A DNA stretch of 49,637 nt from Actinomycetes bacterium. Its GTDB lineage: Bacteria > Actinomycetota > Acidimicrobiia > Spongiisociales > SHLN01. The position numbers and the translations under genes were made by a program. The stretch covers positions 1-49,637 of the forward strand of contig JAHEJY010000004.1 in NCBI GenBank assembly GCA_024638625.1, read 5' to 3'. Every line of letters starts with the position of its first letter. Position 1 is the first letter of the stretch. This document shows, piece by piece, positions 21,624 through 49,637 of this stretch. The notes beneath the pieces were generated by a model. It was given only the letters and a program-made list of their open reading frames with translations. It did no database searches and was not told the DNA's origin.

Positions 21624-24600
21624 GGACTGGAAGGTAGCACGCCTCGGCCGGCTTCGATCCGCGGAGCAAGATCGGCCGGTGTGATGTCGCGAAGTCGTTT
21701 GGCAATGACTTTCGATGAACCACCCGGTTCCATCGTCACTCCGTACAAGATGTCTGCTGCTTCCATCGTCTGCTGTTGGTGGGTGATGATCAGCACCTGG
21801 CTCGACACCCGCAGCGCGTCGACCAGACGCAAGAATCTACGCAGGTTGGCGTCGTCCAGTGCCGCCTCTACCTCATCTAGCACATAAAACGGGCTCGGCC
21901 TCGCTCTGAATACCGCGAACAAGAACGCAATCGCCGCCATCGTTCTTTCACCGCCCGACAGCAGGCTCAAGCGCCTCAACCTTTTCCCGGCCGGCTGGGC
22001 ATCGATCACGACGCCGGTTTCGAGCAGATTCTCCGGATCCTCTAGCCGCAGCCGTCCCCGACCTCCGGGAAAGAGGAGCTCGAAGTTCTCTTCGTAATAC
22101 CGGGCGATGTCGTCGAATGCTTCATGGAACAGCTTCGCCATGGTGTCGTCCAATGCCCCGATCACTTTCCGTAACTCGGCGGCACTCGACTCCAGATCGG
22201 CGAGCTGGTCGGCCTGGAACAACGAACGCTCCTCGAGGGCGGCGAATTCTTCCGCCGCGAGCGGATTGACGGGACCGATGCGCCGTAGTTCGGCTTCCTT
22301 CTGATCGAGCTCAGCCTGCCAATCGTGTGAGGCCGGATCGACAATGTTCTCCGGAAGCTCGGGTTGCGGCGCAGCAAGGGCCTCCTCTTCCGATGCGTCA
22401 ACGTCTCGTCGCAGGCCTTCGGCGACGGCGTCATCCCGAACACGCAAACCCTCGGCTTCAACCGCCAGCGCACCATCCTTTTCTTTGGCCTGAGCAGTGT
22501 CTCGCTCCAACTCGGCTTTTCTCTGACGGGCGCGTTCCAGCTGGAGACCGGCATCGCCCGCAACCTCACGGTTCGCTCGCTGGCGCCCGCGAAGCTCTTC
22601 GAGGTGAGAACCGATAATTCCGATGGCTTCGCGGGCGACATGTTCGATGGCAACCAGGCGCTCCGGCTCCGAGCTCGTGATATCGATCATCGAGATTCTG
22701 TCGATTTCCGTCACTACTTCCCGCGAGCGCGTAGCCAGCATCCGGTGTCGTTCCTCGAGGGAAGCGAGGTTGGCACCAGCGGCCTGACGGGCGACCCGCG
22801 CATCATCTCGCCGGGCTGCGACAGCTTTGCGTCGTTCAGTCAGCGCTTCCCAGATCGCCTGGCGCTCTGCTTCTTCACCTTCGAGCGCCTGCAACCTCGA
22901 ACGTAGATCCTCCAGCCTCGAATGACGATGCACCGAGGCTTCCGAAAGCAGGCCAAGCCGCGCATTGATGCGGTGACGTTCGGCCTCGCCGGACTCCACT
23001 GCTCTCAGGGCTCGCTCGCGAACCATGCCAAGTTCTGTGCGCTGATGCTCGATGCGATGTAATTCGTCGAGGGCTGCGCTCTCGTCTTGTCGAGCAATCT
23101 CAAGCGCTTGCCGGTCGACATGCAATCGGGACGTCGCCTCCTTCACTCCGTCGAGGGCGGCCTGCTTCTCCCGGGTGGCCTGTTCGAGAGATAGAGACCC
23201 GACGGTGGCATCTGCACCGAACCGTACGCCGGCCGGGCTGATCACATCGCCGTTCCTGGTGACAATTCGCAACAGGGGGTGGCGGCGGGCCACGTCGAAT
23301 GCGACGTCCCAGTCGTCGGCGAGAGCGATGTCTCCGATGACGGCTTCCAGCAGAGATCCGGGGAGAGCATCATGGTTCGACAGCGCGTCTGAGAGCAGGT
23401 CGATCAGGCGGGGCAATCCCGCATCGGCCGACTCGGTGATCGGGATTTCGCCGGCCGGCGTCAGAATCGACAGGCCCCTCAATGCTTCGACGCCAAAAGA
23501 TGCCGCCAGCTTCCCGATCCGCTCGCGGGAATCGACGGCGACACCGTCCACCCACCAGCCAAGAGCGGCGTTCACGGCGGTTTTCAGATCAGCGGGAACC
23601 TCCAGCATGGCGATGATGCTCCCGAGTACCCCTTCGGTTGCCTCGATCGCTTCCCTCGTAGCGGGATCGATCCCGCTGGCTGCGCTCACGACATCGATCC
23701 TGGCGGTCGCCGTCGCCGAAGCCAATTGCAGGTCCTGAATGTCCTGCTCCGTGGCTTGTAGGTTCGACTCCGCTTGCCGGACCCGGGAACAGATCTCTGA
23801 CAGGGTCACAGACAACTCGACGGAAGCCTTTTCGGCGATCCGCAATTCCTCGGAAGCGCTCTCCGTCGAAGTGCCGTTGCTCTGCATCCGAGCCTCGACA
23901 TCGAGCAGTCGTTGCCGGGTTGTCTCGGTTTCTGCGGTATCACGTTGGTCGGCTGCTTCGAGCGCGGCCAGGTCACCTCTCAGGTTGGCTATGACACCCT
24001 CCGCCGGCATCATCTCCTGTTCGGCGAGGGATCGCTCTTCCTCTTCGAGGGCCCTCAGGGCGATCTCCGTACGGTCGACCTCGGCAATTGCCTGATCACG
24101 CTCATCAGAAATCAGATCGAGCTCGCTTTGCAGCCGCTGTTGCTCCTCGCTGAGATCCTTCAGCCGATCGTCGCGTTGTTCAAAACCAGCGAACAGCGAT
24201 CGCGACCGTTCGCCGGCGACCGAGGCAATCCGGTCGAGTCGCTCTCTTGTCGTCTCCAGGCGAGCCGCCGAAGCGGTATCCCGCTGTAGCGCACGAGAAA
24301 CGTCGCCGGTCTCGGCCGCAAGCGTCGCTATCACCGTTTCGAGATCGGCCAATTCCGCTGCGTTTTCCGCCAGCGTGTCGGCGAAACCACTTCGCAAAGC
24401 TGACACTTCGGAGGCCCGTTCCCGTAGGGAAGCCAGTGAACGGCCCCCGACAAACAGTCGTAGCGCCCGAATGCGCGCCCGCAGTTCGACGTATGTTTCG
24501 GCTGCCTTTGCTTGCCTTGCCAAAGGGCGCATCTGGCGTTGCAGCTCGCGTTGTATGTCCTGCAATCGAGCGAGATCGACCGCGGTTCGCTCGAGCCTTC

Positions 24601-35170: not shown

Positions 35171-37702
35171 ATGGGTGACGACCTTTACCAGGAACTAAGC
35201 AGCATGCGTCCCGAGCAGAAGCCTCGCAAACGCAAGAATCGCCGCGCCCAGGACGTCGATCCGGGCGCGGAGTCGAAACCACCAGCGGGCAGTGTCGAGC
35301 GACGTTCCCGGCGTCTCACGCTCGCCAGTGATACCGGGGATTATTTGCCGTCACGAAGAGCCAACGGTTCGGACACGCAACACCCCGGCCAGCCGGAAAC
35401 AGTCAACCAGGCAACACCAATGTCAAACCTTTCCCTGGGCTCCAAGGGGATCGTGCCAACCACCCGTAACTCGGGCCGTGACGAGGGCGCACCGGCAACA
35501 CTCAACCGCCCATCCACGAAACAACAGGTTGCTCACCAGCTTCCCGGCAACGTTGGTCAGGCTCCCCGGCTCGAAGCAACCCTGACCAACCTTGCACGAA
35601 CGGAGATTCCCAAGGTGAATTTCACGTTCACGAATCTCGATGAGGAATTCCCTCGCACTGACCAAGCCGACGAGGCAGGCTCCGTGAAGAAAATGAGCCG
35701 CAAGGACAAACGCGAGCTCAAACACCAGGAAAAGAGGGATCGCCAAGAAGAAAAGGACGAAGCCAAAGAGGCCAAACGTCGTGCCAAAGAACAGGCGAAA
35801 ACCGACCGCAAGAACGAGAGGAGGTCGCGTCGCGGCCAGCTCCCCATCGACCACACCGATGCCTCGCCGCTCACGCCCAAAGAACTCAAACGCCGACAGA
35901 AGGAACGGAAGCGTCAGCTCGATCAGCATCAAGTAGTAGCAGCGGGAAAAGTGCGGGCGATCAGGATCGGAATAATCCTCTGGTGGTTGGGACTGGCCGG
36001 AGCTGTCTACTACGGGTTTGTCACCTCCCGTATTGAAGACGCCACGTTCTCGATTCCCCTCCTCGCGGGCGGCGTCATGGCAGCGATTCAGAGCGTTCTG
36101 CCCTGGAAACGCCTTTCAGGGCGCCCCATCGGCCAGATTGCGAATCTCCTCGGCATCCTCGGAGGACTGGGCGTCATCACGACCCTGGCTGGTCACGTCG
36201 AATCAACAGTGATCGTCTTCAGCTTGTATGTCGTATTCCTGGCCTACGGCTCAGTGCTCTTGCCGCTCTGGGGCTATGGCGTGTCCGCCCTGGGAGCCGT
36301 TGGGGTGTATGGAGCAATCACCTGGATCGCAAACCCGACGGTGGGCGCCGACACGATCCTTCCCGTGGCATCGTTGGCTGTTGTCTCGATGGCGATCGCT
36401 CTCACAAATATGGAACTCCTTCGCTATGCGCGCGAGGCAGCGAGACGGTTGGTTCGACTCGAAATCCAACAGGATGGCCTGCAGGATCGACAGAAAGACC
36501 TGGAGGCCCTCTACGAAGTCTCCAGGACGATCGGCGCCGGTGAAGCCATCGAGAAGGTCATCCCGGAACTCATCGAGCGCACTGCCGGATACGTACATGC
36601 CAAAGTGGGGGTAATGCTGCTGTACCGGCCCGTGGAGGACATTCTCGACGCTCTCTCGCCGATATGGGCAGCCGGACAACCCCTCGAAGCCGACGGCTAT
36701 AACCTCCCGCTGTCCTCGAAATCGGGTGCGGTTTGGGCCTTCCGCAACGGGCAGCCGATCGCTATCAACGAGATTCCGGACGGAGTAACCGATCCCCTCA
36801 TACGGGACCTCGGGGTCGAACGGGTGGCTGCGGTACCTCTCCAGATCGAGAATCGTACGATTGGCGTGATGATGGTTGCCGACAAACCCACCGATTTCGA
36901 CGAGGCCGATCTGAAGACTCTGGAGCTGCTGGCCGCACCGGCCGCTCTCGTTCTGCAGAGTGTCGTCCGTCTGGAGGCGTCACAGGAAACCGGCCGCAAG
37001 ATGTCGGAGCTCGCCCAGATGAAGTCTGACTTCGTGTCGGTCGTGAGCCATGAGCTCCGTACCCCTCTCACCTCGGTGATTGGTGCCTTGTCGACGATGT
37101 CTCGACCCGAGCTCGCTCCCAGCAACCCGACTGCGGCCAGCCTCCTCGAGTCCGCCAGGAGCCAGGCTCAACGGCTGAAAGTCTTGATCGAGGACCTTCT
37201 CACGGTGTCAAAGATCGACAACCAGGCACTTCCGCAGCGCTCCGAGCTCGTAGAGGTGCAGTCGTTCCTGAGCGAGATGATCACAACAGGCGACAACTGG
37301 GATGCGGTTACCGTCGACGCCTCGGAGGCACTTGCACCGATACACATCGATCGGGACCACTTGCGGCGCATCATCACGAACCTGGTTGACAACGCTCGCA
37401 AGTACGCCGCGAACTCGACGATCGAGATAGTCGCCATGGAAGCGTCCGGCCGGGTCCGGATCTCGGTCATCGATCACGGCCCCGGAGTTCCTTTCCAGTT
37501 CCGGGAGACGATTTTCGAACGTTTCACCCAGGTGGAGGCGCCCGGAACACGTGGCACCGGCGGTACCGGTCTCGGTTTGAGCATTGTGAGAGAACTAGCG
37601 GAATCCATGAACGGCAAGGCGTGGTACGAGCCGACCGTGGGAGGTGGAGCCACGTTCATCGTGGAGTTTCCCGCCGTCGACGCCGCACTCGAGGTTGCCT
37701 AG
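35171..37702 (+). CDS. Membrane sensor histidine kinase (charged disordered N-terminus, ~6 TM, GAF, HisKA, HATPase)
   Basis: SHELRTPL H-box, NLVDNARKY, DHGPG, GTGLGL. Confidence 0.92.
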   Translation: MGDDLYQELSSMRPEQKPRKRKNRRAQDVDPGAESKPPAGSVERRSRRLTLASDTGDYLPSRRANGSDTQHPGQPETVNQATPMSNLSLGSKGIVPTTRNSGRDEGAPATLNRPSTKQQVAHQLPGNVGQAPRLEATLTNLARTEIPKVNFTFTNLDEEFPRTDQADEAGSVKKMSRKDKRELKHQEKRDRQEEKDEAKEAKRRAKEQAKTDRKNERRSRRGQLPIDHTDASPLTPKELKRRQKERKRQLDQHQVVAAGKVRAIRIGIILWWLGLAGAVYYGFVTSRIEDATFSIPLLAGGVMAAIQSVLPWKRLSGRPIGQIANLLGILGGLGVITTLAGHVESTVIVFSLYVVFLAYGSVLLPLWGYGVSALGAVGVYGAITWIANPTVGADTILPVASLAVVSMAIALTNMELLRYAREAARRLVRLEIQQDGLQDRQKDLEALYEVSRTIGAGEAIEKVIPELIERTAGYVHAKVGVMLLYRPVEDILDALSPIWAAGQPLEADGYNLPLSSKSGAVWAFRNGQPIAINEIPDGVTDPLIRDLGVERVAAVPLQIENRTIGVMMVADKPTDFDEADLKTLELLAAPAALVLQSVVRLEASQETGRKMSELAQMKSDFVSVVSHELRTPLTSVIGALSTMSRPELAPSNPTAASLLESARSQAQRLKVLIEDLLTVSKIDNQALPQRSELVEVQSFLSEMITTGDNWDAVTVDASEALAPIHIDRDHLRRIITNLVDNARKYAANSTIEIVAMEASGRVRISVIDHGPGVPFQFRETIFERFTQVEAPGTRGTGGTGLGLSIVRELAESMNGKAWYEPTVGGGATFIVEFPAVDAALEVA

Positions 37703-40482: not shown

Positions 40483-41097
40483 TCAATCGATCGTGTCGAG
40501 GATCCGGGCCTTTTGCTGTTTGAATTCTTCGTCGGTCAGGGCTCCTTGCCGATGGAGCTCGGCAAGTTGCGCCAGGCTCGCCACATCTTTGTCGATCCGG
40601 CTTGAAACACCTGACAGGACTTTGGTTCTGTCCTCGCGCACGCGGTATAACTCACTATGGAACTTCTGGGGGTGCGGGATGTTCGACAGCCTGCTTTGAC
40701 CAAGCTCTCCGGCGGACTCGATGACGACATCGCCGAAGCCCATCAGCCTTTCGAACAAGGACTGAGAGAACCCGACATCGTTCACGACCTCGAGAGGTAT
40801 CTCCATGCCCGTACGCGCCAGGATCCCCTTCCGAACTATGAGCCGCTCGCTCGTAAGAACGTACAGCGTGTAGTACCAGCGTGTCACCGGCAAAGCGGCG
40901 AGACCAATCCAGCCTGCGACCAACGCCACGAGCGAAGCCCACCTCGGCCACCCATCAGGTAGCAAGTTCCATACGAGAACCGAAGCAACGATTACGAGGA
41001 TCGTCCAGATAATGGGAATGATGAGAGTCTTCCAGTGAGGCCGGAATGCTCGCTGGATGGTTTCGTCTTCGGTGAGAAAATCGGATGGATACGGCAT
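40483..41097 (-). CDS. Bacterial PH-domain membrane protein with C-terminal SHOCT domain
   Basis: RPHW, two TMs, YVLTSERL..RKG, LAELHRQGALTDEEFKQQKARIL. Confidence 0.9.
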   Translation of the reverse strand: MPYPSDFLTEDETIQRAFRPHWKTLIIPIIWTILVIVASVLVWNLLPDGWPRWASLVALVAGWIGLAALPVTRWYYTLYVLTSERLIVRKGILARTGMEIPLEVVNDVGFSQSLFERLMGFGDVVIESAGELGQSRLSNIPHPQKFHSELYRVREDRTKVLSGVSSRIDKDVASLAQLAELHRQGALTDEEFKQQKARILDTID

Positions 41098-41119: not shown

Positions 41120-42016
41120 TCAATCGGCGGCCGCAGAATTGCGGGACACCACCTGCGAGGTGGGATCCGCCGGAGTTGTCCCGGTATCGTCGGCAAAGGC
41201 GGGACAAATGTCCTGGAACGAGCACCAGTCGCACAAACGGCCCGGTCTCGGGCGGAAGTCGTCGCTCCGCAGCGCCTTGGCGATCGCATCCCAGAGCGCT
41301 CGCACCTGCTTGTCCATCGCATCGAGCTGTTTGTCGTGGATATTGAGTCGATACATCGTCGGGCCGTTGAGATATAACAAACGGACTTCCTTGGGTGTAC
41401 GCCCAAGGCGTTTTCGGATCAGCAGCGCATAGATCTTGAGCGCAAAGAAGGCCGGGAGTGCATACCGCTCCGGCGGAGCCTTGCCAGTCTTGTAGTCCGT
41501 GATGATCAGATCCCCATTCGCATCTTCGTCGATGCGATCCAGAATTCCGCGCACCGCTACTCCCTCGAGTTCCTCGAGCATGTCGTACTCACAGAACATG
41601 GGGTCGATCGATCGTGGATCTTCAAGCGAGAAATAGTTCGCGAGTAGCTCCATACTCTCCAATCCCCACGCTCGCTCATCGTCGAGCGATGCGAACAGGT
41701 CGGGATACTCCTCCATACGAAGCTCTGACCAGGCCTGCCGGAACAGTTCATACAACTGCTCCGGAGATCGATCCGGCGACGGTAGCTGGAAAAGGTTCTC
41801 CAGCGCCAGGTGGGCGGCAGTGCCGCGGGCCTGATACACGGTCGAGGGCTCCGGCAGACGCTCGATGAAGCGGTATTTGAAGAGCTGGGGACATTGCTTG
41901 TAGTCACTCAAGCGGCTGGGAGACACCCGTGGCTCGATGGGCGGCCCACCGGGCGAACCAGAGGGGGTCGGATGAGCGGTGACCGAAGAGGGGGATGGAG
42001 TGGTGAGGGCTGTCAT
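41120..42016 (-). CDS. Stand-alone RecB-family PD-(D/E)XK nuclease with four Cys (probable Fe-S)
   Basis: SPSRL..YKQCP, RGTAAH, GILDRID, ITDYKTGK, LCDWCSFQDICP. Confidence 0.92.
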   Translation of the reverse strand: MTALTTPSPSSVTAHPTPSGSPGGPPIEPRVSPSRLSDYKQCPQLFKYRFIERLPEPSTVYQARGTAAHLALENLFQLPSPDRSPEQLYELFRQAWSELRMEEYPDLFASLDDERAWGLESMELLANYFSLEDPRSIDPMFCEYDMLEELEGVAVRGILDRIDEDANGDLIITDYKTGKAPPERYALPAFFALKIYALLIRKRLGRTPKEVRLLYLNGPTMYRLNIHDKQLDAMDKQVRALWDAIAKALRSDDFRPRPGRLCDWCSFQDICPAFADDTGTTPADPTSQVVSRNSAAAD

Positions 42017-42054: not shown

Positions 42055-42199
42055 CTTACGTTTCATGGTTCTTACGTTTCATGTTGTTTCTCGGCTGGTT
42101 CGTTCACGACTGGTTCGTTCACGACTGGTTCGTTCACGACTGGTTCGTTCACGACTGGTTCGTTCATGACTGGTTCGTTCATGACTGGTTCGTTCACGG
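42055..42199. repeat. Tandem repeats: 2 x 16-bp-period CTTACGTTTCATG, then 7 x 15-bp CTGGTTCGTTCA(C/T)GA
   Basis: 15-bp units at 42095, 42110 ... 42185; no spacers. Confidence 0.95.
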
Positions 42200-42440
42200 C
42201 TGTTGCCTAGGTTCATCTATACGCACTTTACGCCATCAGAGTGACACGTTTGTAATTCTCCCGCAAGAGGCCGTCGGCGCACGCCCGGTACGCTGCCAAA
42301 ACCACCCGTCGTCTCGTTCCCATCTGGTGGGAACATGATGGAAGCGATATGACGCCACATGTGCGAAAAGTGGCTCTAGATTGCCGAAAATCAGACCCGC
42401 GGGCGTGAGAAATGGGATCAAGAACTCGAAACCAGATGAG

Positions 42441-42516
42441 GCGCGAAAACTATGTCTTGTTCGCGAAATCTGTCGAGCGATCTAGCTTGACTCCCCTGGG
42501 CCGACCCTCGTATGTT
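42441..42516 (+). promoter_or_regulatory. Sigma70-type promoter TTGACT-N18-TATGTT with upstream CGCGAAA direct repeats
   Basis: -35 at 42487-42492, -10 at 42511-42516; gCGCGAAA at 42441 and tCGCGAAA at 42461. Confidence 0.7.
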
Positions 42517-42522
42517 CGCAAA

Positions 42523-42832
42523 GCACTCGCATGTGGACCCCACATCGAGTGCCCCGTCGGAGGTGATGGGGCACCGACCCTGGTCGGTCCGCCAATGCCG
42601 CAGACGGAGTGGGCTTCGAACCGGAGGAATCCGGATGAACCTCCCGCCAAGGTTCATGAGAAGCCGGGCGGCGTCGCCATAGCGGCCGGGCAGGTCTCAG
42701 GACCCCGGGCTGATCTGACGACAAGCGCCAACATGAGCGCCGCAAGGCGCCGGCCCGGATGCATCCTCCGAGGGGGTGTCCGGGGGCAAAACCCCGAGAG
42801 GGCGTTCTTCGGAGCGGTCACTCGGGGTTTTT
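42523..42832 (+). ncRNA. Candidate ~310-nt structured non-coding RNA (RNA-S), family unknown
   Basis: Own promoter, continuous hairpins (42523-42552, 42549-42574, 42635-42657, GCAA-capped 42737-42750, 42754-42784) and a U-tailed terminal hairpin; no convincing ORF. Confidence 0.65.
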
Positions 42833-42834
42833 GC
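42786..42834 (+). terminator. Intrinsic terminator-like hairpin with cUUCGg loop
   Basis: AAAACCCCGAG..GTTC-TTCG-GAGC..CTCGGGGTTTTT. Confidence 0.75.
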
Positions 42835-42928
42835 ATGTCTGGACACATGTGCATGCAAGAAAAAGGGGGTTTGGCGGATTTCACGAGAAACGAAGAACGT
42901 GGCAGCATGGTGTCCATGGATTCACGAC

Positions 42929-44737
42929 ATGACATCTGAGACCGAATGCCAGATCGCCATCATCGGTGCCAACCGCGCCGGGATCGGTGTGGCCACCGAC
43001 GCCTACGAGGCCGGTATCGACAAAATCGCCATCTTCAGCAAGGATCCCCTCGAATTTCGACTTCCGAACGCGCCGCAGGGGGACACCACACTGATGGGAA
43101 CGCCCGACGAGTACATCGGGTCGCCCGTTACACGCCTGGTTCAGCACGACGACCACGTTGAGGTTCACACCGATGATCTGGTGGTAAAAGCCCAGGTTGC
43201 CGTCGTCGCCGCCAGGGCCGGACTGGAATCGGCCCCGCCCCCCTACGAGATCCCGGCGGCCGTTGCTGCCCGGGTACATATGTCCATGCCGGACGATATC
43301 GACATGGATGCCGACATACTCATCATCGGAGTCGGCGAGACGGCAGCTGAATACTGTGAAGATCTCGTCGACTCCGGATACACGTCCGTGGTCCTCAGCC
43401 TGCCGTCAACAGCGTTCGATCGCCTGGCTCCGGCAACACGCGATCGGCTGAGAGAGGTCGAGTCCCGCCTTCAGGCAACCGTGCTCTGGCACGCACATCC
43501 AACCGGGGTCATCGACGCCGGCGGCGTTCCGATGGTCACCTTTGACGACCGCCGAACGCCTGACCTGGTGTTCGACCACGTCATCTACTCGCTGGGTCCG
43601 GGCCAGAAGGCGGGCAGGCTGGAGCGACTGGGAATTGACCTGCAAAGCGATGCAGTCGAGAACCCGTCACTGGTCGTGTTGAGCCAGCTCGATGATGATG
43701 ACACCCCGCATGCCGAGCCGGTCATTTACGTCTCGCCCGGTCACGCCTGGAGGCTCATACACGACACGCATTTTCCCGAGCTGGCGCCTGCACACGATCT
43801 CGAGGCGCGACCTCCTCTCCTCCGATATCAGCTCGCCGAACACCTCCGCCGGGACGCTTACAACGCCACCATCACCTCGTTCGACCGCCGGCATGGGGAT
43901 CTCTGGGTTATCCGAGTCAAGCCCGACACCGGTGGGGTAGAGCATTTTCCCGGCCAGTACACGACTCTTGCCCTCGGATATTGGGAACCACGAATCGACG
44001 GCCTGGATGAACACCTCGAAGAGGCCAAGTTCGAGAAACTCGTGCGCCGTTCGTATTCGATCTCGTATCCGATCCTCGAGGATGATCGATTGGTTCGACC
44101 CGAGGAGATCGATGGTCTGGAGTTCTACATCGTTCTCGTCCGGGCCGAAGGAATGGATCATCTGCCGGAACTGACCCCTCGCCTCGCGCTCAAGCGAGAA
44201 GGCGACCGGATTTTCATGGGTACCAAGGTCACCGGGCGCTACACACTCAAACCGGTCACGGATCCCGAGATGGACGTCATCTTGCTGTCGACAGGAACCG
44301 GCGAGGCGCCGCATAACAACATGATCGCCCAGCTCCTCCGTGATGGGCACACCGGCAAGATCATTTCTGCCTGCACGGTTCGCTACAACGAGGACCTCGC
44401 CTATCTCCATACCCACCGTCGCCTGGAAGAGCTGTATTCCAACTACACGTATCTGCCACTTACCACTCGCGAGCCCGAAACCATCAACAACAAGGTCTAC
44501 ATCCAGGACCTGATCACGAAAGGGCTGCTGTCCGAAGCACTCGGCCACGAACCGACTCCCGAACGTTCACAGTTCTTCCTATGCGGCAACCCGCTGATGA
44601 TCGGGCTCCCCGCTGTCGACGGCGACACCGTAGCCTTCCCCGAATCGATTGGCGTGTGTCAGATTCTGGTCGAGCGGGGCTTCACAATCGCTCACCGCGG
44701 CATCGATGGAAACGTTCACTACGAGGAGTACTGGTAA
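42929..44737 (+). CDS. Ferredoxin--NADP+ reductase fused to an N-terminal degenerate pyridine-nucleotide-disulfide oxidoreductase-like domain
   Basis: C-half has PGQY, VRRSYSI, STGTGEAP, LCGNPLMI, HYEEYW; N-half has IAIIGANRAGI and ILIIGVGETAAE Rossmann-like motifs. Confidence 0.85.
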   Translation: MTSETECQIAIIGANRAGIGVATDAYEAGIDKIAIFSKDPLEFRLPNAPQGDTTLMGTPDEYIGSPVTRLVQHDDHVEVHTDDLVVKAQVAVVAARAGLESAPPPYEIPAAVAARVHMSMPDDIDMDADILIIGVGETAAEYCEDLVDSGYTSVVLSLPSTAFDRLAPATRDRLREVESRLQATVLWHAHPTGVIDAGGVPMVTFDDRRTPDLVFDHVIYSLGPGQKAGRLERLGIDLQSDAVENPSLVVLSQLDDDDTPHAEPVIYVSPGHAWRLIHDTHFPELAPAHDLEARPPLLRYQLAEHLRRDAYNATITSFDRRHGDLWVIRVKPDTGGVEHFPGQYTTLALGYWEPRIDGLDEHLEEAKFEKLVRRSYSISYPILEDDRLVRPEEIDGLEFYIVLVRAEGMDHLPELTPRLALKREGDRIFMGTKVTGRYTLKPVTDPEMDVILLSTGTGEAPHNNMIAQLLRDGHTGKIISACTVRYNEDLAYLHTHRRLEELYSNYTYLPLTTREPETINNKVYIQDLITKGLLSEALGHEPTPERSQFFLCGNPLMIGLPAVDGDTVAFPESIGVCQILVERGFTIAHRGIDGNVHYEEYW

Positions 44738-44739
44738 CC

Positions 44740-45102
44740 ATGGATATTCGTCTAAGCCTGGTCGCGCTCGACTGTCCCGATCCTCTGGCACTCGCCGGGT
44801 TCTATCGCGATCTGACCGGCTGGCCCGTCGGTCATGTGAGCGACGACTGGGTCGAACTGGATGCAGGCGACGGCGTGACCATCGCATGCCAAAAAGTAGA
44901 GGACTTCTCACCGCCGGTGTGGCCCGGGTCCCAGCACCCCCAACAGCTCCACCTGGATTTCGATGTTGACGACCTGGATGAGGGCGAAGCCCATGTACTC
45001 AAAGTTGGGGCCATCAAGACTGATGAACAACCCAAGCCTCAATCCTGGCGTGTGTTTTTGGATCCCGCCGGCCACCCCTTCTGTCTCGTCCTAGCCGATT
45101 AG
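44740..45102 (+). CDS. VOC/glyoxalase family protein
   Basis: LDCPDPLALAGFY, QLHLDF, DPAGHPFCL. Confidence 0.92.
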   Translation: MDIRLSLVALDCPDPLALAGFYRDLTGWPVGHVSDDWVELDAGDGVTIACQKVEDFSPPVWPGSQHPQQLHLDFDVDDLDEGEAHVLKVGAIKTDEQPKPQSWRVFLDPAGHPFCLVLAD

Positions 45103-45128
45103 ACGTGTTATTCAAGGCATGTTATTCA

Positions 45129-45207
45129 TGGCATGCGCAGAGTCTTAGAGCCCCTTTGCGTCAAGTGGAGTTGCGCAGCAACTCCCAAGGAACCCGCAGG
45201 GTTCCCG
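45129..45207 (-). repeat. Second, inverted copy of the ~80-bp double-hairpin element at 33350-33430
   Basis: Minus strand CGGGAACCCTGCGGGTTCCTTGGGAGTTGCTGCGCAACTCCACTTGACGCAAAGGGGCTCTAAGACTCTGCGCATGCCA. Confidence 0.9.
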
Positions 45208-45228
45208 CCGCCGACAACCAACACGCGC

Positions 45229-45283
45229 AAAAACCCCGGGCTGACAGTCATCTCCGAAGAGATGTCCGCCCTCTCGGGGTTCT
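45229..45283 (-). terminator. Intrinsic terminator-like hairpin with cUUCGg loop, homologous to 42786-42834
   Basis: Minus strand AACCCCGAGAGGGCGGACATCTC-TTCG-GAGATGACTGTCAGCCCGGGGTTTTT. Confidence 0.75.
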
Positions 45284-45960
45284 TGCCGGCCCTGCCCACT
45301 CCGGTCCCAACGCTTCGCAGTGGTCCGGTCGTTCACCCGAAGGTGAGCGTCCGGTACTCCGAAGAGCCGGCTCCGCAGCTTTCTGCAGCGCCCTGGCTCC
45401 GTCACCGTTCCTGACTCAACAGGCACCGATTGCTGCCGGTCTCTCGACCAGCCACTCCCGGTTCGGCTCGAGTGCCAAACCCAAAGTCACGTATTCTCGT
45501 CGGTCCTTCCCCGAAGGGTCGGGCCGTCTCGAAGTTTGCAACTCCGGTACCGAAGCAACGTCCGTCCACTGCATCCTGGCTGCGTCGTGCAACGTTTCCG
45601 TCGCTACGCGGCCCTTCAACAACAGCCTTCTGAGGCTCCGGTTGCCTGGAATGGTCCCAAGTCTTGCGACCCGCTTCCATGCCGGGCCGGGAACTTCCTC
45701 GGCTATTCCCGCACCTCCCGATTTTTCCCCTTGCGGTTCAAATTCGTTCGGTAAAAGAGGCCCTGGAAGTGCCCTCGCCTTCCAAAGTCCTGCAGATCCC
45801 TCCGAGTCACCCGTTAAGACAAGCTCTTTGGTCCCTGCCTGACCGGTCATCCGTTGTCGCCTTCCGTTTTACCGGCGTGACACGTCACCGAAGTGGCATG
45901 TCACAAAAGCGACGGGACGACCAAAGGTCGGCCGCTGTCCGGGATCACTCCCGATCAGCG
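45229..45960 (-). ncRNA. Candidate ~730-nt large structured non-coding RNA (RNA-L), family unknown
   Basis: Own promoter and terminator; six CTTCGG and several GNRA-capped stems on the minus strand; nested long-range pairings. Confidence 0.75.
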
Positions 45961-45965
45961 TCAGA

Positions 45966-46040
45966 ACAATACGCCGACCTAACCCCCCGGTCAAACGTCA
46001 CGGCTGTTTAGTTTTCGCGCTCTACAACCTTGTTTCGCGA
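45966..46040 (-). promoter_or_regulatory. Sigma70-type promoter TTGACC-N17-TATTGT with upstream CGCGAAA direct repeats
   Basis: -35 at 45994-45989, -10 at 45971-45966; tCGCGAAA starting 46040 and gCGCGAAA starting 46020. Confidence 0.72.
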
Positions 46041-46096
46041 CCGCCCGGAGTGCCTTTTTATCACTCTTTTCGAATGATAGGTCGGCTCGGAAATCC

Positions 46097-46118
46097 TGTC
46101 ATATCGCACGGCTAGCTT
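46097..46118 (+). promoter_or_regulatory. Possible PafBC/RecA-NDp-like promoter (TGTCAT-N10-TAGCTT) of leaderless adnAB
   Basis: Resembles mycobacterial TGTCGG-N10-TA-N3-T; the -10 ends 7 nt before the ATG at 46126. Confidence 0.4.
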
Positions 46119-46125
46119 CACAACC

Positions 46126-49050
46126 ATGGCGACCATAGAAGTGCATCCCGGGCGCTGGGATGATGCGATTGCCGATACCGACGGACCGCAGATCGTTGTA
46201 GGAGGGCCTGGAACGGGCAAGACCGAATTCCTCGTGAGGCGCGCCTCCTACCTGATCGAGCGTGGCACGGATCCATCGGCAATCGCAATACTCGGCTTCT
46301 CGCGGCGAGGGGCGGCTGGAATTCGTGATCGAATCGAGGCAAGGCTCGATGAGACCACCGCAGGCATTTCAGCATCTACGTATCACTCGCTGGCGATGAG
46401 GATCCTCGAATCGCATGGCAACTCGGCAGGCGAACCACCGGCGTTGCTCACTGCGCCTGAGCAAGTTGCGTTCGTCGCTGATCTTCTAGCCGCAGAAGAT
46501 CCTGCGAACTGGCCTGCCGCCTATCGGCCGATTCTGCAATCGTCGAGATTCGCCCAGGAGGTCACCGACTTCTTGCTGCGCTGCGCCGAGCAGAGAATCG
46601 GGCCAACCGAAGTCGCGGCATTCGAACGCGATGACTGGAAAGGGCTTCCCGGCTTCTTCGAGAACTATCTCACAAGCTTGGAAGAGGCCGGACGCCTTGA
46701 CTACGGATCGCTCATCGTCCAGGCGGTTGACCTTCTCGACGATCCGATCGTGGCGGAGGCGCTGTCGGAGCAGTTTCAATACGTGCTGGCGGACGAATAC
46801 CAGGACACATCCCATGTTCAGGCTCGCTTCCTCCAGGCACTGGCACGGCATCACCGGAATCTCACCGCAGCTGCCGACCCCTATCAATCCGTCTACAGCT
46901 TTCGGGGAACGGATCTCGCGAACGTTGCCCGGTTTCCCGAGGAGTTCAGAGACGCCGACGGTCGGCCGGCGCGGCGGATCGTGTTGCCGACCTCATTCCG
47001 CGTGCCGGGCGAAATCCTGCGTGCTGCCGAATCGTTGACGACGAACCTGAACCTGCCGGGGGCAGCAGGTCCCGTCGAAGGGGTCGCGAGCGCGGGCCGC
47101 GTCGACGCCCACCGGTTCGACCAGGCGACCGAGGAAGCCGAGTGGATAGCTCGAGAAATCGAGCGAACCCACGTCGTTGATGGCACCGCGTATCAGGACA
47201 TCGCCGTGTTTGTGAGAACAAAGAAGCGTTTCATGTCCGAGTTGTCCCGAGCGCTCGAGCGCCGGGGCATCCCACACAATCGGCCGGATTCCCGCCTCGT
47301 CGACCATCCCGCCGTCCGGATATTGTTCGATCTCGTCACGGCCGCAACCGCCACGGGTGCGGATCAGGATCGGGCCCTTCGCCGGCTCGCACTGGGACCA
47401 CTTCTCGGACTTCCGCCAGGCGAGTTTTACCGGATTTCCCACGAGCAAGGCACCCGCGGTTGGATCAACGTGCTCGGTGAGCACAGCCCTGGCGGAGCGG
47501 CCATCGCAGGATTGATCTCGAACCCGGCGTGGGCGACGACCATGTCGGCAGCAGAAGGTCTCTGGCACATGTGGGAATCCCTACCCCAGGTCGTTGACGT
47601 CGCCAACGATCCGCAGAGACAGAACGAGCGTTTGGGTTGGTCCTCCATCAGCCAGGTACTGGGTCGCCAGTTCGAACGTGACGAAACCGTGACGCTGCAG
47701 CAATACCTCGGCTGGACAGAGAAAGACGATTTCGAGGCCGACCCTTTGCTTCGTCATCAATCGAGTCGCGTTCCAGAGGTGACCCTGACCTCCCTTCATC
47801 AAGCCAAGGGTCTCGAATTCGATACCGTCTTCATTGCAGATGCCGTCGAGGGAGTGTTCCCCGATTTGAGAGCGCGAGAATCGCTTCTGGGCTCGCGACA
47901 TCTGTCCTCATCGCTGCCTGCCGATGTTGTCCAATACCGCCGGTTCCGACTTCAGGAAGAAGCCCGGCTGGCATACACAGCCATGACCCGCGCTTCCCGG
48001 CGTGTGATCTGGACAGCGACCTCCGCAGGTGACGACTTCCGGCCCGGGGGCCCCAGCCGGTTTCTCGATCGGCTCGGCATCCCGGTTGATCGTCCGCCAG
48101 ACAGGATGCTGCCGGTTTCGGTGCTCGAAGGAGAGGCCTGGTTGCGGAGAATCGCAGCCGACCCCGGGGCGGGGATTGCTGCGAGATCGGCGGCCATCGA
48201 ACATTTGGCCAGTGGCCAGGCATGGGGCGGTCGGGATCCCCTTCGCATTGCCGGAGTTCTGCGTCGTGGCTCGAATAGGGGGATCACTACCCCAGGCAAG
48301 CTTCGCCTCTCTCCCAGCCAGGCCGACAGCTATGCCCGCTGCCCCCGTCAGTACGCCCTGGAAAGGCGTCTGCGATTCTCGGATGGTCCGACGGTACACC
48401 TCGCCTTGGGAAACGTCGTGCATCAGGTGATTCATCAGACCGATGTACATCACCCTGATCCCGTCGTCGAAGATGCGCTGACAACCCTGGATGATCGTTG
48501 GGACCCGGCCGACTTTGGCGGACCGCCCTGGGCTGACGCCTGGTATCTGCGCGCCCGTCATATGCTCGAAAACCTCTACAAACATCGCAACCGGAATCAT
48601 GAGGTGGTTGAGTCCGAGTACGACGTCACGCTGGATGCCGGTGGAGTGCAGTGGAGTGGTTCAGTCGATCGTATCGAACGTCGCGGTTCGCAACTCTGGA
48701 TCGTCGATTTCAAGACGTCGAAAACGCCCGCCCGGGCAGACGAAGCCGCCCGATCGATCCAGCTTGGCTTCTACGTTCTGGCCACGCAACAAGACCCGGG
48801 TTTGTCGGCGTTGGGAGAAATCACGGGAGCCGAGCTCTGGTATCCAGCCGTCCCGCAGAAGAAGCAACCCTTTGCGACCCGCCCGTTCAACATGTCGTTT
48901 CTTCCCCAGGTTCGCCAGACGATGTCTGAGCTTGCAGCCGATGTCGAGGCGGAGCGCTGGGATCCGGTGCCGGGAGAGGCCTGTCGCCACTGCACCGTGC
49001 GATCGTCGTGCCCCGCGGTTCCGGAAGGCCAGGAGGCCTATGCCGGATGA
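46126..49050 (+). CDS. adnA: AdnA-like UvrD-type helicase plus RecB-type nuclease
   Basis: GGPGTGKT, ADEYQD, DPYQSVYSFRG, HQAKGLEF, YTAMTRA; C-terminal VDRI...VDFKT and CRHC...CP. Confidence 0.88.
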   Translation: MATIEVHPGRWDDAIADTDGPQIVVGGPGTGKTEFLVRRASYLIERGTDPSAIAILGFSRRGAAGIRDRIEARLDETTAGISASTYHSLAMRILESHGNSAGEPPALLTAPEQVAFVADLLAAEDPANWPAAYRPILQSSRFAQEVTDFLLRCAEQRIGPTEVAAFERDDWKGLPGFFENYLTSLEEAGRLDYGSLIVQAVDLLDDPIVAEALSEQFQYVLADEYQDTSHVQARFLQALARHHRNLTAAADPYQSVYSFRGTDLANVARFPEEFRDADGRPARRIVLPTSFRVPGEILRAAESLTTNLNLPGAAGPVEGVASAGRVDAHRFDQATEEAEWIAREIERTHVVDGTAYQDIAVFVRTKKRFMSELSRALERRGIPHNRPDSRLVDHPAVRILFDLVTAATATGADQDRALRRLALGPLLGLPPGEFYRISHEQGTRGWINVLGEHSPGGAAIAGLISNPAWATTMSAAEGLWHMWESLPQVVDVANDPQRQNERLGWSSISQVLGRQFERDETVTLQQYLGWTEKDDFEADPLLRHQSSRVPEVTLTSLHQAKGLEFDTVFIADAVEGVFPDLRARESLLGSRHLSSSLPADVVQYRRFRLQEEARLAYTAMTRASRRVIWTATSAGDDFRPGGPSRFLDRLGIPVDRPPDRMLPVSVLEGEAWLRRIAADPGAGIAARSAAIEHLASGQAWGGRDPLRIAGVLRRGSNRGITTPGKLRLSPSQADSYARCPRQYALERRLRFSDGPTVHLALGNVVHQVIHQTDVHHPDPVVEDALTTLDDRWDPADFGGPPWADAWYLRARHMLENLYKHRNRNHEVVESEYDVTLDAGGVQWSGSVDRIERRGSQLWIVDFKTSKTPARADEAARSIQLGFYVLATQQDPGLSALGEITGAELWYPAVPQKKQPFATRPFNMSFLPQVRQTMSELAADVEAERWDPVPGEACRHCTVRSSCPAVPEGQEAYAG

Positions 49051-49062
49051 ACGGATGAGAAG

Positions 49063-49637
49063 ATGAACATCGACCCAACGCCCGAACAACTCGCCATCAT
49101 GGAATACGACGCCGGAAAACCTCTTCGGGTAGCCGCGGGAGCCGGGACCGGCAAGACTTCGACGATCGCGTTGCGGCTCGAGACACTCATCTCGCAAGGC
49201 GCGGTAGATCCGGAGACCACACTCGGTATCACCTTCACGGTCAAGGCGGCCGAAGAACTCCAGCATCGTTTGATGACACAACTCCACGAGCTGGCCAAGG
49301 ATGGGCGCATGCCACTCGTGACCACCTACCACGGTTTCGCGTTCTCGATCGTCCAGGAGTTCGGCGGATATGTGGGACTCGAACAGCAAACCCGTGTGAT
49401 CACCCCGGGATTCGGCCGACAGCTCCTGCTCGAGACCTTGAGCGAGGGCCAGTACGAGCACCTCGACTTGACACATGTTCGGGGGCGGATTGAAGAGCTG
49501 GTCGGGCTGGGGTCCGAGCTCTCCAATCACCTCTATCGACCACAGGATCTGTTCGCGGAGGTCGATGCGAACGACGACATCGGAGCCCGGCGCCGCGAGC
49601 TGGCGGCAGTTCTGGCCCGGTACGATGAGAAGAAGCG
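49063..49637 (+). CDS. adnB: AdnB-like ATP-dependent helicase (partial; runs off the right end of the window)
   Basis: Manual translation MNIDPTPEQLAI...AGAGTGKTST...GITFTVKAAEEL...TTYHGF; tandem with adnA. Confidence 0.88.
   Translation, partial: MNIDPTPEQLAIMEYDAGKPLRVAAGAGTGKTSTIALRLETLISQGAVDPETTLGITFTVKAAEELQHRLMTQLHELAKDGRMPLVTTYHGFAFSIVQEFGGYVGLEQQTRVITPGFGRQLLLETLSEGQYEHLDLTHVRGRIEELVGLGSELSNHLYRPQDLFAEVDANDDIGARRRELAAVLARYDEKK

Follow-up and report, generated by a model that had tools for sequence, protein, structure and literature searches.

The RNA-S gene and its borders

The window analysed here is a stretch of 49,637 nt (contig JAHEJY010000004.1 of assembly GCA_024638625.1, class Acidimicrobiia). 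It carries a gene for an RNA of about 310 nt, called RNA-S, and on the opposite strand a gene for a longer RNA, RNA-L. RNA-S is very probably an independent structured non-coding RNA (ncRNA) gene of a new family, and from their common signature both genes are assigned to an undescribed family spanning one order of Acidimicrobiia. The gene borders are set by conservation and the structure by covariation; the promoter and terminator signature is unique to the two genes in the source genome and is conserved vertically across the order. The statement as a whole, an ncRNA gene of a new family with a tentative trans-acting mechanism, seems to us probable. The features are listed in table 1.

Table 1. 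Features of the RNA-S and RNA-L genes and of the conserved or adjoining genes in the window. MFE, minimum free energy.
Feature	Position	Strand	Remarks
RNA-S, about 310 nt	42523-42832	+	5' end inferred from the -10 element (± 4 nt), 3' end from the T-tract
Upstream box 1 of RNA-S promoter, CGCGAAA	42442-42448	+	invariant in 4/4 genomes of the genus
Upstream box 2 of RNA-S promoter, CGCGAAA	42462-42468	+	20 bp past box 1, 25 bp before -35
RNA-S core promoter, sigma-70-type, TTGACT-18-TATGTT	42487-42516	+	consensus scan
5' hairpin of RNA-S	42523-42552	+	14-bp stem, one bulge, ACCC loop; MFE, centroid and four-genome consensus (helix 2)
Three-way junction of RNA-S	42612-42665	+	one arm with the invariant loop CUCCCGCCAAGG; MFE
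Conserved 3' hairpin and terminator of RNA-S, AAAACCCCGAG-A-GGG...UUCG...CUC-A-CUCGGGGUUUUU	42788-42832	+	18 pairs, 17 never varying
RNA-S terminator, CCCCGAGAGGGCGTTCTTCGGAGCGGTCACTCGGGG + T5	42792-42832	+	read from the sequence
RNA-L, about 730 nt, second gene of the family	45229-45960	-	5' end inferred; fold z -7.2; ORF-poor stretch
RNA-L promoter	45966-46039	-	boxes 46033-46039 and 46013-46019; TTGACC 45989-45994; TATTGT 45966-45971
bPH_2 + SHOCT membrane protein gene	40483-41097	-	Pfam; second conserved neighbour of the RNA locus
PD-(D/E)XK nuclease gene	41120-42016	-	PF12705, E 9.7e-38; divergent from RNA-S; conserved neighbour
UvrD-type helicase gene with C-terminal PD-(D/E)XK nuclease domain	46126-49050	+
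Second UvrD-type helicase gene	49063-49635	+	cut by the window end

An earlier note on this DNA had described a structured RNA of about 310 nt between a promoter and a U-tailed terminator, and all three elements were recovered. The layout of the promoter, CGCGAAA-N13-CGCGAAA-N18-TTGAC, is rigid, and the spacing of the second box is the same in the sister genera and order-wide. The boxes repeat in the same orientation at a distance of two helical turns, and the core promoter that follows them is close to consensus. A consensus scan of 1.2 kb gave two promoter-like sites against 0.1 expected; the genus and its sister genera keep TTGAC (-35), followed after 17-18 nt by GTAnnnT. The motif of the 3' hairpin occurs in the source genome at the RNA-S and RNA-L sites only.

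The folding energy of positions 42515-42835 (+) is -170.1 kcal/mol, compared with -142.3 ± 5.0 for shuffled sequences (z -5.5; 0/100 shuffles as good). The fold is strand-specific, z being just -2.6 for the minus strand of the region. The MFE, centroid and four-genome consensus models all predict seven separate hairpins or junctions, with an end-to-end closure of only 2 bp. The GCAA and UUCG tetraloops announced previously are present, at 42742-42745 and 42807-42810. The loop CUCCCGCCAAGG and its closing GAAGC are unchanged in the alignment of the four genomes of the genus, and the segment CCUCCGAGGGGG is likewise invariant in all four while the adjoining stems vary.

Three overlapping 5' hairpins had also been proposed, with the suggestion of a folding switch. 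The first (42523-42552) is found in the MFE structure and in the four-genome consensus, and the pairing CGAC/GUCG within 42573-42588 is confirmed and invariant in 4/4 genomes. The middle helix, 42549-42574 (GUGCCCC/GGGGCAC), can be drawn in the source genome; 5/7 of its pairs persist in G002 and G003, while G001 has lost them all. Absent from the MFE structure and not kept in relatives, this competing helix gives no basis for a switch.

A scan of the whole window with Rfam 15 gave no family at gathering score at any position. When positions 42200-43000 were compared with all 4227 Rfam 15 families (cmscan, E ≤ 10), nothing relevant was found, the matches beside RNA-S being two chance eukaryotic ones. 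Transfer-messenger RNA, RNase P RNA and signal recognition particle RNA, none of which the first reading had recognized here, were all found above cut-offs elsewhere in the source genome (RF00023 at C94:9737-10091, RF00010 at C182:5733-6132 and RF00169 at C103:2502-2598, respectively) and none in the window.

Conservation and covariation in the genus

The full RNA-S element is present in all four genomes of the genus, namely the source genome and three more, of which two have 90% and the third 76% identity, and it was not found elsewhere among 41 relatives (BLAST and covariance model in both cases). In the alignment, conservation starts about 80 nt 5' of the predicted start of RNA-S and stops at the T-tract; the spacer from there to the downstream gene is variable and cannot be aligned within the genus. 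The species differ in RNA-S by indels of 8, 5, 4 and 1 nt, and the region is therefore not considered coding. BLAST matches of RNA-S in G005, G007 and G037 were taken as chance: they lie in what read like coding regions, one of them that of ribosomal protein L24.

In the model-guided alignment of the four sequences, 94% of cells pair. Compensatory changes, G-U pairs included, are seen at 10 of the 105 pairs, compared with 3.6 ± 1.4 in shuffles (0/500 reach the observed number) and 1-2 when the partners are slid.

Metagenome contigs with RNA-S were obtained from three of four DNA runs. In these three other runs the likeness to the window is confined to 42435-42837; all the contigs are near relatives of the G002/G003 type and bring no new covariation data. 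A metagenome scan with the pattern of the invariant loop matched at least 119 stretches, and none of the 80 examined fits the RNA-S model (1/80 at chance level, E 0.9); the pattern is too short for that metagenome collection.

A second gene with the same promoter

The 2.8-Mb source genome contains exactly two sites of the two-box promoter, both ahead of a structured RNA, and the reversed control gave none. The second site, at 46039-45990 (-), lies 3.2 kb from that of RNA-S and belongs to RNA-L. The 3' end of this RNA, at 45229, is a hairpin of CCCCGAGAGGG...GGGGUUUUU design, of the same kind as in RNA-S; the two terminators match each other by BLAST (77%, E 8.6e-4). The RNA-L region 45100-46150 was also compared with Rfam 15 (cmscan, E ≤ 10) and has no relevant match.

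RNA-L is kept in 4/4 genomes of the genus, with a length of 689-739 nt as extracted (a few bases 5' of the inferred start included). Among these four genomes compensatory changes are seen at 19 of 217 pairs, and the indel lengths are not divisible by 3. The gene is convergent with the oxidoreductase and glyoxalase genes and divergent from the UvrD/PD-(D/E)XK helicase gene, and there is no downstream gene on its own strand. A two-box promoter, a hairpin-rich body and a 3' hairpin of the form CCCCGAGAGGG...CUCGGGG-U define the family, and in the source genome this definition describes RNA-S and RNA-L alone. The earlier note had neither the common promoter nor the second RNA gene of the window nor the family spanning the order.

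Two open reading frames (ORFs) without a Pfam domain overlap the RNA genes: one of 175 aa over RNA-S (42412-42939 +) and one of 245 aa antisense to RNA-L (45105-45842 +). Both are probably spurious.

A related arrangement of boxes is seen elsewhere: at G000:C154:8944-8971 (-), two CGCGAAA boxes stand at a spacing of 14, not 13, and are followed by three DnaA-box-like repeats (TGTGGAAAC twice and TGTGGATAA). On the 3' side of these repeats there is a promoter-like site, then about 300 nt of untranslated sequence and then ORFs reading like a small helix-turn-helix protein and ClpS; the next ORF is a DUF2017 protein by Pfam.

Counterparts in the sister genera

The entry to the sister genus g2 was a weak covariance-model match (E 1e-3) to a structured element of 460-650 nt with a fold z of -7.1 and no Rfam match. 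This long element is kept in 8/8 genomes of g2 and 2/2 of g3. The two boxes recur ahead of it with unchanged spacing, its terminator is similar, and an orthologous PD-(D/E)XK nuclease gene is divergent from it. In eight sequences of the long RNA, 47 of 159 pairs are compensatory, against 19.1 ± 2.9 in 300 shuffles (maximum 26) and 6-10 when partners are slid. Every genome of g2 and g3 also has a second two-box promoter, ahead of an RNA of about 300 nt. A profile of promoter and RNA built from the two sister genera finds only two places in the source genome, the promoters of RNA-L (E 2.7e-7) and RNA-S (E 0.018).

At the loci L160 (G012) and L161 (G010), a hairpin module of about 45 nt (GGAAGGGCGAAAGCCC...GGUGUAAAAGCC) is present in the long RNA of g2 one to three times more often than in related RNAs, which shows that the RNA has lengthened by internal duplication.

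Distribution in the order and anatomy of the family

The two-box pattern, with one mismatch allowed, was scanned for in 401 sampled Acidimicrobiia genomes. It was found in 66 of the 110 genomes of the order and in 0/291 of the other orders of the class, and the reversed control gave nothing anywhere. An unpublished genome, G195, is among the 66; without it the count is 65/400. By family, the pattern is present in 3/3 genomes of f1 (the source genome included), 16/25 of f2, 28/48 of f4, 3/3 of f6, 11/12 of f10 and 5/9 of f12, and in 0/5 of both f7 and f11. These frequencies are lower bounds because the detection pattern is rigid. Two or more sites occur in 24 genomes, often 280-1600 nt apart on one strand, and 20 such multi-site loci (60 kb) contain no Rfam family at gathering score.

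Among 64 distinct promoter instances that were collected, 52 are followed by an RNA body delimited by a recognisable terminator. The bodies fall into two length groups, 175-327 nt (32) and 459-737 nt (20). The word CUUCGG is present at 7.8 per kb in these RNAs versus 0.57 in the genome, and GAGAGGG at 2.57 versus 0.04 per kb. Tetraloops make up 402 of the 516 predicted hairpin loops (UUCG 119, GCAA 94, GAAA 50, GAGA 29). According to the same predictions about 30% of the bases would be unpaired, with linkers of 1-2 nt and purine-rich internal loops (A, G, GA, AA, GGA).

The sequence of the 3' hairpin is kept across the order, including the A-A mismatch between GAG/CUC and GGG, a constraint that far exceeds what termination needs. 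The ends of the RNAs (promoter, 5' hairpin and 3' hairpin) are thus the constrained parts and the body is a plastic, fast-evolving chain of very stable hairpins capped by UUCG or GNRA loops, whose number changes by module duplication.

Some boxes stand before or face other genes. In family f2, a two-box site with a TTGCC -35 element lies about 230-280 nt upstream of an ORF for a class II (B12-dependent) ribonucleotide reductase (L231 in G112, L232 in G106; sites found with one mismatch allowed). The nrdJ gene of the source genome has no two-box site upstream. The factor binding the boxes may thus control more than the RNAs in some lineages. At L274 (G037:C1, about 21880-21940), two inverted boxes (TTTCGCG) stand 20 nt apart, upstream of the forward boxes and facing the divergent gene, which hints at bidirectional control.

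Neighbouring genes

The commonest layout in the order is a divergent PD-(D/E)XK nuclease gene, then two RNA genes in tandem, then the bPH_2 + SHOCT gene. In 39 loci of about 3 kb each, the nuclease gene is divergent from the first RNA promoter in 19 and the bPH_2 gene lies downstream in 15; both are found in 11, from five families. The locus of the window's genus is rearranged: the bPH_2 and nuclease genes (-) are followed by RNA-S (+), oxidoreductase and glyoxalase-like genes (+), RNA-L (-) and two UvrD-type helicase genes (+), a pair which we take to be AdnAB-like. The oxidoreductase flank is peculiar to this genus. In g2, genes for a DUF2332 protein and an MscS-like protein sit between the two RNAs.

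The start codon of the oxidoreductase gene, expected about 95 nt downstream of RNA-S, was read from the alignment as the ATG at 42929, about 97 nt past the T-tract. Just 5' of it, at about 42895-42910, a motif ACGTGGCAGCAT(G/T)G is common to G000, G001 and G002 despite the unalignable spacer, and may be the gene's own control site. Between the start of the nuclease gene and the RNA-S promoter there is a tandem repeat (42095-42202; 7.2 copies of the 15-mer CTGGTTCGTTCACGA, 96% matches). A GAF-HisKA-HATPase histidine kinase gene (35171-37702, +) lies 5 kb from the RNA locus.

Possible mechanism

RNA-S transcription would start at the sigma-70-type promoter, whose two direct CGCGAAA boxes, 20 bp apart and near -60 and -80, are the putative site of a dedicated transcription factor, and it would end at the long, sequence-conserved hairpin with its U-tail. 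Since stable hairpins close both ends, the RNAs are presumed to be long-lived. They would act in trans by binding or titrating a protein, at a level set by the box-binding factor, a proposed logic like that of CsrB/CsrC, RsmY/Z, 6S or Ms1. We put forward this long-lived, protein-binding or protein-titrating RNA tentatively, as one plausible role, and rank it first because protein-titrating RNAs such as CsrB/CsrC and RsmY/Z show the same combination, with genes in pairs, an upstream site in common, a terminator that is conserved and a body of many hairpins that varies.

CsrB/CsrC and RsmX/Y/Z are paralogous genes for decoy small RNAs (sRNAs), with a shared upstream activator site, an intrinsic terminator and a variable number of hairpin modules. 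By analogy, RNA-S and RNA-L would resemble them in being two paralogous genes with a conserved upstream site and terminator and a poorly conserved, modular body. They differ in that the loops are UUCG or GNRA, not GGA, in that no CsrA was found, and in their length of up to 737 nt. A sponge for CsrA itself was rejected, as CsrA (PF02599) was not found in the source genome and the loops are without the GGA motif.

Several points weigh against the proposal of a new family acting in this way. The body of RNA-S does not align with the RNAs of the sister genera (BLAST 0/4; covariance model one weak match, E 1e-3), and its homology to the RNAs of other genera is suggested by promoter, terminator and position. 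Its covariation is modest: the alignment holds four sequences, three of them at least 90% alike, so the signal is carried mainly by G001. The 44 genomes of the order without the pattern may have diverged copies or none. Apart from tetraloops and purine-rich internal loops, the RNAs of the family have no conspicuous single-stranded motif that recurs. The transcript ends and abundance are inferred from sequence, and the factor at the boxes is hypothetical. Many of the genomes are metagenome-assembled, and the source genome, in which the search for CsrA was negative, is 86.5% complete.

It is also possible, though we think it somewhat doubtful, that RNA-S and RNA-L represent, in a short and a long form, a new and order-specific class of large 'ornate' RNAs that are rich in tetraloops and made under the control of a dedicated box-binding factor. 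Alone or together they would fold into a defined RNA or ribonucleoprotein (RNP) architecture and would perform a housekeeping task for which other actinobacteria rely on Ms1/6C or 6S; regulating RNA polymerase, or the nuclease and helicase genes for DNA repair next to the RNAs, would be examples. The RNAs share with the large bacterial ncRNAs OLE, GOLLD, ROOL and the raiA motif (compare PMC10861870) a length of several hundred nucleotides, dense GNRA loops, purine-rich internal loops and strong covariation. They differ from the ornate RNAs in having no Rfam match to any of them, in their fast-evolving interior and length, with module duplications, and in being defined by a promoter and terminator signature and by their occurrence in pairs.

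Comparison with Ms1 and 6S RNA

The earlier note had pointed to Ms1 for its size, and an Acidimicrobiia counterpart of Ms1 or 6S, binding the core or holoenzyme of RNA polymerase (RNAP) and tuning its availability, was considered in which RNA-S would act with RNA-L. Excerpts of PMC9130861 describe Ms1 (MTS2823 / scr3559) as an RNA of about 230-300 nt in Actinomycetes, flanked by an HAD-IB hydrolase gene on one side and an oxidoreductase, PH or similar gene on the other. Its fold is 6S-like, a long double-stranded rod with a central bubble and 5' and 3' hairpins. Rfam offers Ms1 candidates, but its model reaches only close relatives of mycobacteria (PMC9130861, same excerpts).

The resemblance is one of lineage and setting. 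Like Ms1, RNA-S (about 310 nt, a similar length) is an independent, highly structured sRNA gene of Actinomycetota in a conserved core locus. Ms1 lies near a second sRNA, 6C, in actinomycetes according to excerpts of PMC6582537, and here too two RNAs stand side by side; Table 3 of PMC9130861 has 'PH' among its flank phrases for Ms1, and throughout the order the RNA locus is bordered by a PH-domain gene. None of 41 genomes of the order, the source genome included, gave a match to 6S (RF00013); the search, positive in 5 of 14 named genomes as a control, gave no match in the window, the source genome or the 41 relatives searched. The 6C RNA was not found in the source genome. In that genome the best HAD-family gene (PF12710, contig C215) has no long intergenic region beside it, and for this reason no canonical Ms1 locus is seen. 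Unrelated RNAP-binding RNAs do occur in actinobacteria: excerpts of PMC11077062 describe CoRP RNA of Corynebacterium glutamicum, defined by co-immunoprecipitation with RNAP, and thus an actinobacterial lineage without 6S or Ms1 that has an abundant, unrelated RNA of its own.

Despite these parallels a counterpart of Ms1 or 6S is unlikely, and membership of Ms1 itself is not supported. Neither RNA-S nor RNA-L has a match in Rfam at E ≤ 10, the HAD-IB flank is absent at the RNA locus, and in place of a long rod with a central bubble the predicted fold shows hairpins and junctions strung in a chain. The family ranges from 175 to 737 nt, and is therefore a poor fit to a promoter mimic of fixed geometry. 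The two-box promoter and the conserved 3' hairpin are further differences, neither being mentioned for Ms1 in the excerpts of PMC9130861, PMC6582537 and PMC11077062 available to us. RNA-S and RNA-L are defined by their sequence, CoRP by its co-immunoprecipitation. With 6S they share the properties of a stable structured RNA with its own gene, and in an order without detectable 6S a functional stand-in is conceivable; they differ from it in the missing RF00013 match, in the absence of a rod with a central bubble and in a far more variable length.

The PH flank was followed outside the order. Orthologues of bPH_2 are present in 113 of 251 genomes of the phylum, a tally that includes the unpublished G554, G510, G668, G710, G720, G526, G592, G621 and G645. 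In a scan of 29 bPH_2 loci (L261 of G554 among them) for boxes and the 3' motif, paired boxes were absent from all 22 that lie outside the order, six of which have single matches to a box or to the 3' motif. Apart from these two tallies and the count with G195, nothing reported here depends on unpublished genomes. No long structured spacer was seen upstream of bPH_2 in the 14 out-of-order loci that were read. Three upstream neighbours assigned by Pfam are Germane/Gmad2 (two) and APH, none of them HAD; a further upstream neighbour reads, by eye, like gatC.

Other explanations

The 6C RNA of actinomycetes pairs with G-rich ribosome-binding sites through C-rich loops. RNA-S could similarly be a base-pairing sRNA, with C-rich loops resembling anti-Shine-Dalgarno sequences (CUCCCGCC, AUCCUCC, ACCCC). 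Its own promoter and terminator and the invariance in 4/4 genomes of the loop CUCCCGCCAAGG and the segment CCUCCGAGGGGG, amid varying stems, would suit this role, which we nevertheless regard as improbable. The C-rich loops are not kept outside the genus, though the RNA family is; RNAs of 310-730 nt with about 30% of the bases unpaired are unlike typical seed-pairing sRNAs; and a search of the source genome for complements of the loops gave many Shine-Dalgarno-like matches and no distinctive target.

The recurrence of the nuclease and bPH_2 genes beside the RNAs in the 39 loci raises another option, in which the RNAs serve as guide, scaffold or inhibitor in an RNP with the PD-(D/E)XK nuclease, the bPH_2 membrane protein or both. 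In the genus RNA-L is also divergent from a UvrD-helicase/PD-(D/E)XK gene, and the inverted TTTCGCG boxes in G037 suggest that the divergent gene is controlled jointly. To be neighbours in a core locus that is passed on vertically is, however, weak evidence of physical partnership, and in g2 the DUF2332 and MscS-like genes separate the two RNAs. We judge such an RNP quite unlikely.

That RNA-S is a cis-acting riboswitch or attenuator leader of the oxidoreductase gene, the alternative offered in the earlier note, is now very improbable. RNA-S does lie upstream of this gene on the same strand in 4/4 genomes of the genus, and its terminator could serve as an expression platform. However, the conserved block ends with the T-tract, past which the spacer to the gene varies; the same type of RNA precedes DUF2332, another RNA gene or bPH_2 elsewhere, and RNA-L, built in the same way, is followed by no gene on its strand. 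More distant oxidoreductase orthologues (58-63% identity) come after a 5'-3' exonuclease gene (two ORFs checked with Pfam), and the RNA-S profile has no match at their loci. The sole candidate for a competing helix is not conserved, and no riboswitch family in Rfam was matched.

Although ORFs of 175 and 56 aa (42412-42939 and 42512-42682) overlap RNA-S, a small coding region or a DNA-level element in place of an RNA gene can practically be dismissed, given that the 175-aa ORF has no Pfam match, that indels of 1, 4, 5 and 8 nt between species disrupt every frame, that the fold is strand-specific and that the compensatory changes include G-U pairs.

Significance

Marine, freshwater, soil and wastewater communities are rich in Acidimicrobiia, a class that has barely been cultured. 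We found no paper on their ncRNAs or on the two-box promoter motif in a literature search; the class is not among the taxa named in the main-text excerpts of PMC9130861, PMC6582537 and PMC11077062.

What is new here is a pair of RNA genes, of up to about 740 nt, that covary strongly and lie outside every Rfam family. To our knowledge, large and well-conserved structured RNAs without an assigned function are rare in bacteria. The two-box signature is a simple handle to find these RNA genes in any genome of the order, and, used as a DNA probe, it could serve to isolate the controlling factor. Given that 6S was not detected in the order, nor a canonical Ms1 locus in the source genome, these RNAs may be counted as candidates for the global RNA regulator that the lineage is missing.

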